Positions 16,973 through 58,192 are shown, counted from the first letter of the stretch. The stretch is 64,000 nucleotides of DNA from Flavobacterium sp. (GCF_046155325.1 NZ_JBJXDQ010000003.1:4804-68803), one strand, 5' to 3'. Notes: generated by a model not told the origin, from the letters alone. Numbers and translations: made by a program.

Positions 16973-17044
16973 TAGTCCCTGGGGGAATCGAACCCCCCTT
17001 ACCAGGATGAAAACCTGGCGTCCTAACCGATAGACGAAGGGACC
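16973..17044 (-). tRNA. tRNA-Glu (TTC), CCA not encoded
   Basis: GGTCCCT/AGGGACT acceptor stem, CCAGG-TT TTC AT-CCTGG anticodon arm, GGGGG-TTCGATT-CCCCC T arm. Confidence 0.95.
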
Positions 17045-21290: not shown

Positions 21291-21384
21291 AACTGGATAT
21301 AAATATTGTAAATAGAAAGCCATTTCATTTATTGAAGTGGTTTTCCTTTTAGTGGATATTTTGAAATACTAAAAGTACTAAAAT

Positions 21385-21447
21385 AGACCCGAGTGCAGTG
21401 GAAATCCTCCCGATTTTTCTTCGGGAGATTAAAACGAAAAGCGGGAC
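21385..21447 (+). ncRNA. Probable Flavo-1-like RNA motif/repeat
   Basis: cccg..gcagtggaaatc-[ctcccga/tcgggag hairpin]-gatt..cgaaaagcggga layout matches my recollection of the Flavo-1 motif; not verified by a covariance search. Confidence 0.55.
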
Positions 21448-21537
21448 TCAACACTCTAAAAAAATACAAAGGTTTATGCTTCTAAAAATAAAAATCGTAA
21501 TTTTGCAAAATTCCCAATTTATAGGGATTATAAATCT

Positions 21538-24298: not shown

Positions 24299-24375
24299 TT
24301 TGTCATTCTGAGCGCAGTAAGAATCACATAACGATAGCAACAGATGTGATTCTTCACTGCGCTCAGAATGACAAA
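24299..24375. repeat. Long REP-like inverted repeat (TGTCA-type)
   Basis: 31-bp stem (24299-24329 with 24344-24375, one bulged C at 24355), 14-nt loop. Confidence 0.9.
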
Positions 24376-41393: not shown

Positions 41394-43631
41394 CTACAAA
41401 ACCAATAAACCAAAATCTCTCAAAGTATTGACCGGTTTTGAATACCAAAACAATTCGAAATCATTAAAATGAATTTCAAAATCAGATTTTACTTCCTGAA
41501 ATGAATAGATTTTTGAATTTGAAACCGATATTTTCTGGAGTATTTGAACCAACCATTCTCCCTCATTTTTCGCTGTTTGAATGGTAAAGCTTTCCTTTTT
41601 GTCGTGAAAAGTCAAAGTCATCATTTCCCAACTGTTTCCTTTTTTGGACTTTGTAAAATATTCTAAAGTTGGCATTCCTCCTAGCCAAACTATTTTGGCT
41701 GTCGGTTTAATATTAAAATCTAAATCTTTAAGCAAGGCTTCAGAGATAAAATCAGGATGAATTTTGGTTTTTGGAATCTTAAAATCGAACCATTCTTGCA
41801 ATTCGTAGTCAAAACAAATTCCGTGCATAAAATTGAATAAGGATTTTTTTAAACCATAACTAAATTGATTATGATCTATTCCTGTTTCATCAACGAAGTT
41901 TATATCGTTATTAGCAAAAGTCCCAACAACTTCGGTTTCTTTCACCACGCCAAATTTCTCTGGATACATTCCCACAGGACTGTGTGCTGTCATCGCAAAT
42001 TGATGCCAGAAACCCGATTGCAAAACCCCAACTTCAAACAATTGTCGCACCATTTCGAGGCTATCTACAGTTTCCTGAACCGTTTGCGTGGGATAACCAT
42101 ACATCAAATAAGCATGAACCATGATGTTGGCTTCGGTAAAATTGCGAGTCACTTTAGCCACTTGTTCGACCGTTACGCCTTTGTCTATCAATTGTAATAA
42201 TCGGTCTGAGGCTACTTCGAGTCCTCCCGAAACGGCAATACATCCGGAAGCTTTGAGCAATAAACATAAATCTCTAGTAAAACTTTTTTCGAAACGAATG
42301 TTCGTCCACCACGTAACTGATAATTTCCTGCGCAGAATTTCTAGTGCCAACGCTTTCATTAAGGCTGGAGGTGCTGCTTCATCTACAAAATGAAAACCAT
42401 TTTCACCCGTTTGCGCTATCATCTCTTCCATTCGATCACACAAAATATTGGCGGCGATGGGCTCGTAAACCTTAATATAATCTAACGAAATATCGCAAAA
42501 AGTACATTTTCCCCAATAGCAACCGTGTGCCATCGTGAGTTTGTTCCATCGACCATCGCTCCACATTCGGTGCATGGGATTGACTATCTCAATAACCGAA
42601 ATGTATTTGTCTAATAGCAAATCTGAATAATCGGGTGTGCCAACTTGAGATTGTTTGTAATCGGATTTTAATGAATTGTTTTTATAAACTACTTTGCCGT
42701 TTTCAAGAAGGAAAGTTCTTTTAAATTGCCCTTCGACAAGCTCAGGGTGACAAACTGCATTTACGAGTAACTCCACTGGTAATTCGCCGTCATCTAAAGT
42801 AATGAAATCGAAAAACTCAAATACACGAGTGTCTGAAAGCGAACGCAATTCGGTATTAGGAAAACCACCACCCATGGCAATTTTGATATTTGGGTGGTGT
42901 TTCTTTACCCATTGAGCCGAACGAAAAGCCGCATATAAATTCCCCGGGAAAGGTACTGAAATCAGGAATAATTTGGGTTGAATGGTTTCGATTTTTTCTT
43001 TTAGAATCGATATTAAAATTACATCAATATAAGTTGGTTCTTGTTGCAGAGCTTCATACAATTCGTCGAATGAATTAGCAGAGCGACCCAATCGTTCTGC
43101 GTAGCGACTGAAACCAAAATTAGCATCGACACATTCTACAATAAAATCGGAAATGTCTTCGAGGTATAAAGTCGCTAGATGTTTGGCTTTGTCTTGCGTT
43201 CCCATCGTTCCGAAAGCCCAATCCAATTCCTCCAATTGTGCAAAACGAGAAGCTTCAGGCAAATAATCTTCCTGACAAATTTGTAATGCCAATGTTGGGT
43301 TTTTCCCCTGAAGAAATGCAATAACACTATCTATGGTTTTAATGTATTCGTCTTGGAGAGCGAGAATTCTTTGGGTGTTTATTGTTAAAATGGAACGCAT
43401 CTCGACTGCGCTCGAGGTGACACCTTCATTGTTACAAAACAAATTTTCAAGTCCTTCTTTAGAAAATAATTTCAAAATCACTTCAATGCCTAAATCAGCT
43501 TGAGTTGTCTGAATGTTTTTGGTATTCAGAAACCCTTTGATATAAGCGGTTGCTGGATACGGTGTATTCAGTTGAGTAAAGGGTGGTGTGATGAGGAATA
43601 CTTTGCTTTTCAAAGGAATTGTTTTGTGCAA
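41394..43631 (-). CDS. B12-binding domain radical SAM protein
   Basis: ITPPFTQLNTPYPA; HGCYWGKCTFC; alternative TTG start at 43613. Confidence 0.9.
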   Translation of the reverse strand: MHKTIPLKSKVFLITPPFTQLNTPYPATAYIKGFLNTKNIQTTQADLGIEVILKLFSKEGLENLFCNNEGVTSSAVEMRSILTINTQRILALQDEYIKTIDSVIAFLQGKNPTLALQICQEDYLPEASRFAQLEELDWAFGTMGTQDKAKHLATLYLEDISDFIVECVDANFGFSRYAERLGRSANSFDELYEALQQEPTYIDVILISILKEKIETIQPKLFLISVPFPGNLYAAFRSAQWVKKHHPNIKIAMGGGFPNTELRSLSDTRVFEFFDFITLDDGELPVELLVNAVCHPELVEGQFKRTFLLENGKVVYKNNSLKSDYKQSQVGTPDYSDLLLDKYISVIEIVNPMHRMWSDGRWNKLTMAHGCYWGKCTFCDISLDYIKVYEPIAANILCDRMEEMIAQTGENGFHFVDEAAPPALMKALALEILRRKLSVTWWTNIRFEKSFTRDLCLLLKASGCIAVSGGLEVASDRLLQLIDKGVTVEQVAKVTRNFTEANIMVHAYLMYGYPTQTVQETVDSLEMVRQLFEVGVLQSGFWHQFAMTAHSPVGMYPEKFGVVKETEVVGTFANNDINFVDETGIDHNQFSYGLKKSLFNFMHGICFDYELQEWFDFKIPKTKIHPDFISEALLKDLDFNIKPTAKIVWLGGMPTLEYFTKSKKGNSWEMMTLTFHDKKESFTIQTAKNEGEWLVQILQKISVSNSKIYSFQEVKSDFEIHFNDFELFWYSKPVNTLRDFGLLVL
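42729..42752 (-). repeat. TGTCA-type REP-like unit in frame inside the radical SAM gene
   Basis: tgtcaccctgagcttgtcgaaggg encodes CHPELVEG. Confidence 0.75.
43398..43422 (-). repeat. Second TGTCA-type REP-like unit in frame inside the radical SAM gene
   Basis: tgtcacctcgagcgcagtcgagatg encodes VTSSAVEM; internal ctcga/tcgag stem. Confidence 0.75.
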
Positions 43632-48498: not shown

Positions 48499-48542
48499 AA
48501 ATCCCGTTTAAACCCGACGCTTCGGGAGAAACGGGATTTTTT
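48499..48542. terminator. Bidirectional terminator with a cccgacgcttcggga hairpin in its loop
   Basis: aaatcccgttt/aaacgggattt outer stem; inner element at 48513-48527. Confidence 0.8.
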
Positions 48543-57040: not shown

Positions 57041-58192
57041 TTAAATTTTGAGAATTTCGCCACGATCAAAAGAACTATTACTTCCAATGATAAAATCTGA
57101 AGTTTTTGAAGCTATTTTAAAGGTAAATTTTTTATTTTTATTCGATTCAAAATTAGCAATAATAGCCTTATAATCAATATATTTAGCGTCGAATATTACT
57201 TCTGTAGCCACTGACATTTTAATTTCATCAATAGATTTTTTGAGTGCTACTTCCTGATATAATTTTGCTTCAATTCTACTTTTAAGAACTTTATTATTTG
57301 AAATCAACAAATACTTTAGCGGTTTTGTTTGCAACTTAGTTTTTCCTTGAAACATTTTAAAAAACGAAAAAAATAGTATTCCAATTTTCATAAAGACTGA
57401 AAACAAAAAGGATCCCGAAGCGTCGGGAGTAAAATGCTTTTTATAGAAAAAATTCATCGCTTCACTAAAACGTTTCATATAAGCGCCATCTTTAATTGTG
57501 CTTTCACCTTTGTAGTGAATTATAGTTGTTTCAGGATAATAATAATTTGATTTTTCTTTTTTTAAAGCCATGTATGACAAATCAATATCGTCTGAATACA
57601 TAAAACAGTTTTCATCAAAACCTCCAATTTCAATATAAAAATCGCGTCTCATAACCATAAAAGCACCTACTAAAATAGCCGCTTTTCCAGTTGTGTTTTC
57701 AGAAAGATCTTGAGCATAATACTGATTAAATAAACTTGCTTTAGGAAATATTTTATAAAGACCGAAAATTTTCGTAAAAGCTACCCAGGGTGTTGGAATA
57801 CCGCGTTTACTTTCTGGAAGAAAATTTCCCGTTCCGTCAATAAGTTTTACCCCAACTATACCTAAATCTGATTGTTTTTTGGCGAAAGCCAATACCTTAA
57901 TAAAGGTATCTTCAGCAACAACTGTATCAGGATTTAATATACAAATAAATTCACCTTTTGCTTTTGAAACCCCAATGTTATTCCCTTTTGGAAAACCTAG
58001 ATTTTCTTTGTTTTCAATCAGAAAAACTTTAGGAAAAAGATGCTTAATCATGGCACAACTGCCATCTTGTGAATTATTATCGACTACAATAATTTCACCA
58101 TCTATGTTTTCCAATGCTTTTTGAACACTACAAACACATTGCTCTAGAAAATAGCGAACGTTATAATTAAGAATGATGACTGATAGTTGCAT
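57041..58192 (-). CDS. Glycosyltransferase family 2
   Basis: SVIILNYN, VVDNNSQDGS, LNPD, GGFDE..YSDDIDL. Confidence 0.92.
   Translation of the reverse strand: MQLSVIILNYNVRYFLEQCVCSVQKALENIDGEIIVVDNNSQDGSCAMIKHLFPKVFLIENKENLGFPKGNNIGVSKAKGEFICILNPDTVVAEDTFIKVLAFAKKQSDLGIVGVKLIDGTGNFLPESKRGIPTPWVAFTKIFGLYKIFPKASLFNQYYAQDLSENTTGKAAILVGAFMVMRRDFYIEIGGFDENCFMYSDDIDLSYMALKKEKSNYYYPETTIIHYKGESTIKDGAYMKRFSEAMNFFYKKHFTPDASGSFLFSVFMKIGILFFSFFKMFQGKTKLQTKPLKYLLISNNKVLKSRIEAKLYQEVALKKSIDEIKMSVATEVIFDAKYIDYKAIIANFESNKNKKFTFKIASKTSDFIIGSNSSFDRGEILKI
57413..57428 (-). repeat. tcccgacgcttcggga hairpin in frame inside the GT2 gene
   Basis: Encodes (T)PDASG; 15 nt identical to 48513-48527. Confidence 0.8.

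Follow-up and report, generated by a model that had tools for sequence, protein, structure and literature searches.

The superfamily of repetitive extragenic palindromic (REP) elements with an unpaired terminal CGTC tag, which is often TGTC or CCTC, has been described from five phyla including the Bacteroidetes, with Gramella forsetii named as CGTC-positive (Di Nocera, De Gregorio, Rocco 2013, BMC Genomics 14:522, PMC3733652). According to the text of that paper, the units are 20-40 bp long and have stems of 8-9 bp with complementary A/T at positions one and two, loops of 4-5 nucleotides (nt) and an unpaired 3-nt tail that fits CCA; they lie mostly downstream of open reading frames (ORFs), without an associated transposase, and when dimeric are mostly arranged as inverted pairs, some families having heterodimers. 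The same text equates two Rickettsia palindromic elements (RPE), RPE-4 and RPE-6, with CGTC families and reports single units in frame in known proteins, tRNA synthetases among them; its supplementary table lists the peptide RHSELVSGS in a ferredoxin-like protein of Sulfurovum and has no intragenic entry for the Bacteroidetes. In this work a TGTC-tagged 24-mer, TGTCACCCTGAGCTTGTCGAAGGG, is described, which is translated as CHPELVEG within the gene of a radical SAM protein of Flavobacterium sp. (GCF_046155325.1), is conserved as DNA in most lineages of its clade, and occupies a site with a history of repeated replacement. The stretch analysed (NZ_JBJXDQ010000003.1:4804-68803, 64,000 nt) is called the window, and positions are those of the window unless a contig (C) is named.

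As far as the CGTC class is characterized in that text and table, the Flavobacterium units resemble it in several respects. They are short palindromes in many copies (about 27 in this genome, 0 to more than 86 in congeners), the tag is TGTC, the loop has 4-5 nt (CTTGT, or CGCA(GT) in the other type), intragenic units occur, intergenic ones lie mostly after ORFs, dimers are inverted, with a partner of different stem in many phyla, and no transposase gene was found flanking the units. The Sulfurovum peptide is nearly the same as CHPELVEG here and as CHSELVSES in one ortholog (locus L022). The differences concern the stem, whose arms do span eight positions but consist here of four variable pairs, a tandem G.A/A.G and one G-C pair and not of a clean 8-9 bp, with an A-T pair at the first position in just 6 of 22 units, and the tail, which is not CCA; it is CAA, ATA and CTA in the three copies of the type of the 24-mer (own-type copies), and in other phyla the 24-mer is mostly followed by TG or CG. 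Because tag, loop, dimers, intragenic units and the missing transposase fit, whereas the stem does so in part and the tail does not, the Flavobacterium units are probably a member or a close variant of the CGTC/TGTC-tagged superfamily, an assignment based on that paper's descriptive text and its supplementary list of peptides. A REP kind with intragenic units is thus already known; turnover at the same site, synonymous-site conservation and exact identity across more than ten phyla are not found in the text and table of that paper and appear to be new. Literature searches gave no description of in-frame REPs for Flavobacterium or the Bacteroidetes.

REP-type units in the radical SAM gene and in its genome

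The host protein matches Pfam PF04055 (Radical_SAM) over residues 368-527 and the B12-binding radical SAM families of NCBIfam from about residue 175, its close homologs carry the public name 'B12-binding domain-containing radical SAM protein [Flavobacterium ...]', and a CX4CX2C cluster motif can be read by eye at residues 371-379. A first-pass annotation of this DNA had pointed to a GC-rich 24-nt sequence in frame between the B12-binding region and the radical SAM core, and both the sequence and its placement were borne out: TGTCACCCTGAGCTTGTCGAAGGG, with 58% G+C as compared with 32.8% genome-wide, encodes residues C294 to G301 of the protein, is present in a single copy in the window, and was found in 0 of 100 shuffled windows. 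The two relatives of the 24-mer that the annotation had proposed are also real. One is a second unit in the same gene, TGTCACCTCGAGCGCAGTCGAGATG, which is read in another frame as GVTSSAVEM, and the other belongs to an intergenic inverted pair of TGTCATTCTGAGCGCAGT[A/G]AAGAATCACAT units (Table 1). The linker with the GVTSSAVEM unit will be referred to as site 1, and the linker with the CHPELVEG unit as site 2. When the units were mapped on an AlphaFold model of the host protein, which was built from a 23-sequence alignment and has only moderate confidence (predicted local distance difference test score, pLDDT, 69.8), the site-1 unit was placed within a loop with pLDDT below 50 (residues 69-79), and the site-2 unit was modelled as the end of a helix (residues 283-294) and the coil ahead of a strand (residues 306-310).

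The 24-mer is not unique in the genome (a draft of 2.75 Mb in 202 contigs): there is an exact copy at C88:17880-17903 and a copy with 2 mismatches at C45:8265-8288, both intergenic. In a profile search with nhmmer about 27 short TGTC-tagged hairpin units were detected. They share a layout in which a (T)GTCA tag and four variable bases are followed by GAG, the loop, CGA and the complement of the four variable bases, with a CGCAGT loop in most units and the 5-nt CTTGT loop in the own-type unit. In the alignment of 22 units G3, T4 and C5 are invariant and T2 is nearly so, one unit being tagged CGTC. The variable stem positions covary: 79% of the cells were paired, as against 62% in shuffles, and 29 double-sided stem changes were counted, as against 10, values reached by 0 of 500 shuffles; slid controls were all much lower. 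In pattern searches for the units, reversed-pattern controls gave 0 in every genome searched, and the recurrence is far above chance. A strong hairpin formed by the solo unit was considered and rejected, since the folding energy (-2 to -3 kcal/mol) does not improve on that of shuffles. Inverted doublets, of which there are four in the genome, fold at -28 to -32 kcal/mol (z about -11), the pair in the window at -31.6 kcal/mol (z = -10.7). Intergenic copies lie mostly 19-46 nt past the 3' ends of ORFs, and the two other own-type copies are located 18-19 nt ahead of start codons.

Searches of Rfam at gathering thresholds returned no family matching the units within the window. A loose, purely structural scan, in which every 4-bp stem enclosing GAG...[CT][GA]A was accepted, had no discriminating power (106 matches as against 82 in the reversed genome), the GTCA-tagged subset alone exceeding the background, and readings of the CTGA...GAA core as hammerhead-, K-turn- or tRNA T-arm-like were dropped after inspection by eye, because the defining core positions do not fit. 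Two variations of the family were noticed. Three units on one contig (C156:2843, 4788 and 11587) have common longer flanks, TGTTTTGCTTGTCATCTCGAGCGCAGTCGAGAGAAGCAAAT, that extend the palindrome, and this trio looks like a local subfamily or recent duplications. At C45:8265-8310 and at three further Flavobacterium loci (L132, L164, L175) an own-type unit is followed by heptamer runs of the CTAACTT/CTTCTAA type, and this combination of unit and microsatellite recurs in leader regions, just upstream of the start codon, in several Flavobacterium genomes.

Conservation and turnover of the in-frame unit

Conservation at the nucleotide level was determined by comparing the DNA of the Flavobacterium sp. 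gene with that of six relatives that also encode CHPELVEG (assemblies from NCBI, ENA and JGI; 94-95% amino-acid identity over 278 residues). The 24-mer was identical in 7 of 7 sequences (0 of 504 compared positions differ); the 240 flanking nt differ by 15.2% on average, and 35% of the codons for the same amino acid differ. Among flank codons whose amino acid is invariant, the mean number of synonymous changes was at least 1.02 and 31% were unchanged in the seven sequences. All eight codons of the unit were unchanged, for which the flank rate gives 0.306^8, or about 8e-5, and none of 89 eight-codon control windows was unchanged. Choosing the relatives by their peptide introduces no bias at synonymous sites, given that branch lengths were measured in the flanks. 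Further lineages showed one change each (L183 and L184), three (L181) or four (L182), and about ten changes, synonymous ones included, were counted in the lineage with CKPESFEG (L185). The freeze thus does not hold in all lineages, and copies are either intact or decaying. Other unit types diverged no more than the strongly conserved coding flank downstream. In most lineages of the clade it is the DNA of the unit, not its peptide, that is preserved.

The site itself has been anything but static. In an alignment of 24 orthologs from species-level genomes (62-87% identity) the site-2 unit falls within a short linker of variable sequence, with the invariant block ITLDDGE.P on one side and the invariant block KRTF on the other. 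Many orthologs have a family unit with the identical 3' boundary, yet with other stems (GACT/AGTC in L011, CACT/AGTG in L027, ATTCT/AGAAT in L022 and L030) or the other loop type; in L022 the unit has a perfect 8-bp stem, ATTCTGAA/TTCAGAAT, and in L008-10 it is GTCACTTCGAGCGCAGTCGAGAAG, the 5' half of which is translated in another frame. CHPELVEG is common to a clade, with point variants, and other orthologs read family DNA in different frames (VTSSAVEK, VTPSAVEG) or have unrelated linkers. Unit-sized indels and switches of type fall at the same codon position. One indel at site 2 is in G012, which has exactly 21 nt of unit that its three closest relatives do not have, so the orthologs do not align free of gaps. 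Two oddities were seen at this site: an apparent unit nested in a unit in P0099 (AVTPS-VSSRAQSRE-EGQF), and, in P0055 and P0068-P0070, a unit whose 3' half is partly duplicated (CHPEPVEG-LVEV).

In a larger set of 135 orthologs, 90 have the unit in the TGT|CAx frame, 25 in the GTC|ACx frame, 4 read CHTER and 16 are without a unit. On a tree of these orthologs, calculated with both linkers masked, at least 20 state changes are required, and the well-supported branches by themselves call for 10 or more changes that involve the commonest type. Well-supported sisters disagree (CKPESFQG in P0028, VTPSAVEG in P0086), and sequences free of the unit are nested within a CHPELVEG clade. An in-situ replacement can be followed in P0044 (L186), where GTT-TGTCACCCTGAGC-TTGTCGAAGGG is replaced by GTCACCCCGAGCGCAGTCGAGGGG: the loop is the other canonical one, the stem change is compensated, and the segment is 3 nt shorter with the frame kept. 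The history of site 2 is one of repeated replacement, not of one insertion.

At site 1 units differ in position and frame between this genome and G022, and P0066 has a clean insertion (QSNNQ-RHPERSRRA-TTNNCK). The same linker holds other repeats in other species (P0004-P0009), namely heptamer runs of the GTTTCAA type (SFKFQV), CACCCAA heptamer runs (TPNTQ) and a CCCCC...GGGGG palindrome (SPLAPKGG). Linker 1 seems to gather whichever short repeats a genome has.

These results support, with refinements, the suggestion of the first-pass annotation that the process by which Rickettsia palindromic elements create peptide insertions acts in Flavobacterium as well. The palindromic family, the eight genic copies and the match to the superfamily support the parallel as such; what happens at the site is replacement and not a single insertion, and the synonymous-site conservation of the DNA is not predicted if the unit is a simple passenger. 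In this lineage CHPELVEG is not strain-specific, being shared by a clade, and a net insertion was rejected, as the linker is only 0-2 residues longer than in unit-free orthologs. Unit-sized indels do exist in other places, at site 2 of G012, in P0066 and in the glutamyl-tRNA synthetase GltX.

Units in other genes, genomes and phyla

Eight of the approximately 27 units of this genome are situated within long ORFs that Pfam confirms as real genes. Apart from the two in the radical SAM gene (CHPELVEG, GVTSSAVEM), they were found in GltX (NISTALDVTNK), a BioD-like AAA_26 protein (GHPERSRKT), a D-2-hydroxyacid dehydrogenase (VSSREQSREL), a cytidylyltransferase (LPLDCARGDS) and, twice, an NAD-binding protein (TSTALSVT, DPSTALRKT). 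Genic units are read in five frames, all three sense and two antisense ones, and never in the antisense frame that is closed by TGA; because of this range of frames, no particular unit peptide is favoured. In GltX the unit is located at the junction of the catalytic and anticodon domains, and the protein of this genome is 5 residues longer; at the same junction G012 has a unit of its own and G014 a decayed one. The units in GltX, in PurL (see below) and at site 2 of the radical SAM protein are all at domain junctions.

Among congeners the GCGCAG-type pattern has species-specific loop letters: GCGCAG in this genome, G006, G013 and G020, and GCG[G/A]AG in G012, G015 and G008; a congener may have none of it or over 86 copies, as against 0 in reversed controls. 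Of 301 genomes sampled from the phylum, 31 have the exact 17-nt core of the own-type unit (25 of 143 genera, at most 14 copies per genome); it was absent from 11 other Flavobacterium species in this sample. Species-representative genomes have the exact 24-mer in 120 stretches or more, which belong by record title to more than 10 bacterial phyla. The sources listed are Bacteroidota, Nitrospirota, Eremiobacterota/Vulcanimicrobiota, Calditrichota, Ignavibacteriales, Spirochaetota, Verrucomicrobiia, Alphaproteobacteria, Syntrophaceae, Nitrospinales, Limnocylindrales, Babeliales, Peribacteria and Saccharimonadia. In these stretches an inverted partner whose stem differs (...ATGCTTCGACAGGCTCAGCATGACA...) often lies 15-40 nt after the 24-mer, or the 24-mer forms tandem arrays. 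Arrays with a spacing of about 22-46 nt in high-GC genomes (L064, L116 and L160, from Eremiobacterota and others) contrast with the solo or doublet arrangement in Flavobacterium. Of 140 copies listed, only 11 are deep within an open frame of at least 200 aa; for ten of these the surrounding DNA has at least 62% G+C, a composition in which long frames often arise spuriously. The credible in-frame match among the listed copies is in PurL of a Flavobacterium, directly before the glutamine amidotransferase domain. Across phyla, the exact 24-mer lies mostly outside genes.

Table 1. Positions of the REP-type units, their host gene and other features in the window
Feature	Position	Strand	Basis
REP-type unit of the CTTGT-loop type, TGTCACCCTGAGCTTGTCGAAGGG, CHPELVEG (residues 294-301)	42729..42752	-	sequence and in-frame translation
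Second REP-type unit, GCGCAG-loop type, TGTCACCTCGAGCGCAGTCGAGATG, (G)VTSSAVEM (residues 70-78)	43398..43422	-	profile search
Host gene, 745-aa B12-binding-type radical SAM protein	41394..43631	-	Pfam, NCBIfam, homolog names
Intergenic unit, left arm of the inverted doublet	24301..24329	+	sequence, profile search, folding
Intergenic unit, right arm of the inverted doublet	24344..24373	-	sequence, profile search, folding
Palindromic 15-mer CCCGACGCTTCGGGA, one copy	48513..48527	+	
Palindromic 15-mer CCCGACGCTTCGGGA, other copy	57413..57427	-	
Flavo-1 RNA	21381..21452	+	Rfam, 56.2 bits (gathering score 42)
tRNA	16973..17044	-	

The window also contains another GC-rich palindrome, CCCGACGCTTCGGGA, in exactly two copies; with up to 2 mismatches allowed it has 3 matches, a number that no shuffle attains.

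The Rickettsia elements (Ogata et al. 2000, as cited in PMC3733652) are likewise palindromes that lie in frame at permissive positions of functional proteins, and the eight genic units of the present genome are in intact genes confirmed by Pfam and give unit-sized indels. The link between the two is drawn from the equation of RPE-4 and RPE-6 with CGTC families in that paper. Rickettsia is obligate intracellular, whereas the host here is a free-living Flavobacterium and the units have 24 nt. RPE-1 is much longer, about 100-150 bp. The GTAG-tagged REP/REPIN elements, which go with REP-associated tyrosine transposases (RAYTs), also combine a tag with an imperfect hairpin and have inverted doublets and family-specific types within one genome; the tag of the present units is TGTC, not GTAG. 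The genome has two matches to PF01797 (Y1_Tnp), both weak and neither flanked by TGTC units, and a RAYT as the mobilizer was rejected on present evidence, since one match is a truncated frame that has a stop and the other has a different palindrome at its sides. No dedicated transposase gene flanking units was found among the 202 contigs, a draft state in which absence is not proven. An ORF at C100:4945-5265 (L038) resembles a RAYT-like Y1 transposase (20 bits to PF01797) and is flanked on both sides by CCTACAAGGTTT...AAACCTTGCAGG; it may form, with its palindrome, a separate REP/RAYT pair of this genome.

The DNA uptake sequences of Neisseria and Haemophilus are short motifs conserved at the nucleotide level, which occur as inverted pairs after genes and in coding regions; they number hundreds to thousands of copies per genome and are upheld by drive, not by the peptide they encode. 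The parallel can be taken as a functional analogy only; there are about 27 copies per genome here and the motif is shared across phyla rather than lineage-specific.

Drive, signal, passenger or peptide

Taking these observations together, we favour, with a probability of roughly 60 per cent, the view that the 24-mer, a TGTC-tagged REP-like unit, was absorbed into the frame of a permissive connector and is kept there by copy-to-copy drive. A REP-type unit would have entered the reading frame where the N-terminal B12-type domain is joined to the radical SAM core, at a place where any stop-free frame of the unit is probably tolerated. CHPELVEG is a by-product, given the many frames in use and the other frames read by orthologs. 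A single sequence-specific process would then maintain the family throughout the genome, keep this unit intact and sometimes overwrite it with another member, and where the process lapses, the unit would decay like any ordinary linker. Copy-to-copy replacement, or re-insertion aimed at existing units (molecular drive), is the favoured candidate for this process over protein-level selection, because it would account both for the freeze and for the switches to canonical members with compensated stems.

Several points weigh against copy-to-copy drive. Neither a replacement enzyme nor a donor copy was identified, and for ordinary homologous gene conversion a unit of 24 nt is short. Because the solo hairpin is weak (about -2 kcal/mol, z = 0.16, with no gain over shuffles), mechanisms driven by structure are not obviously favoured. 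Maintenance of the unit is not universal, as L181, L182 and L185 show plain decay. The tree of orthologs was made with FastTree only and has many weakly supported forks, and recombination among strains could inflate the number of switches at site 2. Assignment to a specific CGTC family is by the paper's text, which belongs here too, and so does the fact that a freeze of synonymous sites is equally expected from selection for a DNA or RNA signal.

Selection for such a signal is the main rival. The unit would be a functional nucleic-acid element under selection in place, for example a site bound by a conserved host factor, or a part of the mRNA acting on its stability or on the pausing of translation where domains meet, and in-frame copies would be retained for this function. 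Synonymous sites frozen in seven lineages, a 24-mer common to more than 10 phyla, genic copies at inter-domain junctions and intergenic copies clustered past ORF ends (19-46 nt) or before start codons (18-19 nt) speak for it; it is harder to reconcile with a gene that stays intact in many orthologs whose unit is missing or decayed, with different unit types and frames occupying one site, with a copy number that can be 0 in a congener and more than 86 in another, with a weak solo hairpin, and with the lack of an Rfam family that matches the units. On balance we regard a selected signal as rather unlikely. The two remaining explanations are strongly disfavoured. If one ancient insertion had drifted as a neutral passenger, ortholog units being inherited and diverging, the equal 3' boundary in all orthologs, the sharing of CHPELVEG with its point variants by a clade, and the decay in L181, L182 and L185 would be accounted for. 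Under drift, however, about 8 synonymous changes would be expected in eight codons of seven lineages, where 0 were observed, and neither the loop-type switches with compensated stems and frame changes, nor the presence or absence of 21 nt between close relatives, nor the changes forced by well-supported branches of the tree are explained, which makes a passenger improbable. That selection acts on CHPELVEG as a peptide motif of the enzyme, which would resemble intergenic repeats by coincidence, could be argued from its conservation in the clade and from the Cys-His pair, which could resemble a metal ligand; but peptide selection leaves synonymous sites unfrozen, orthologs do without this peptide by using other frames or unrelated linkers, and in many phyla the same 24 letters stand mostly outside genes. 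This last explanation can hardly be entertained.

The units create spurious peptide 'motifs' in conserved enzymes, such as HPELVEG, VTSSAVE, LRQAQGD and FDKLRVT, as well as hypervariable alignment segments, whose repeat origin should be recognized by annotators and modellers. It is possible, if somewhat doubtful, that the TGTCACCCTGAGC[T/C]TGTCGAAGGG unit is recognized by a sequence-specific system common to many phyla, which could be a mobilizing or repair-type enzyme or a conserved nucleic-acid-binding factor. If so, this system would keep the unit letter-perfect, including synonymous sites in essential genes, and overwrite old units, and it would explain why all 24 nt are the same from Flavobacterium to Nitrospirota, Eremiobacterota and the bacteria of the candidate phyla radiation (CPR). 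How REPs that lack a transposase spread and maintain themselves is still open, a point made for the CGTC class in the text of the 2013 description (PMC3733652). An in-frame copy has a built-in control that intergenic copies lack, because the synonymous sites of the neighbouring codons give the neutral rate. Judged by this control, most lineages of the clade actively preserve the DNA of the repeat; in others it has decayed or given way to another family member. The in-frame unit therefore makes the choice between drive and function experimentally testable and offers a handle on the persistence of REPs without a transposase.

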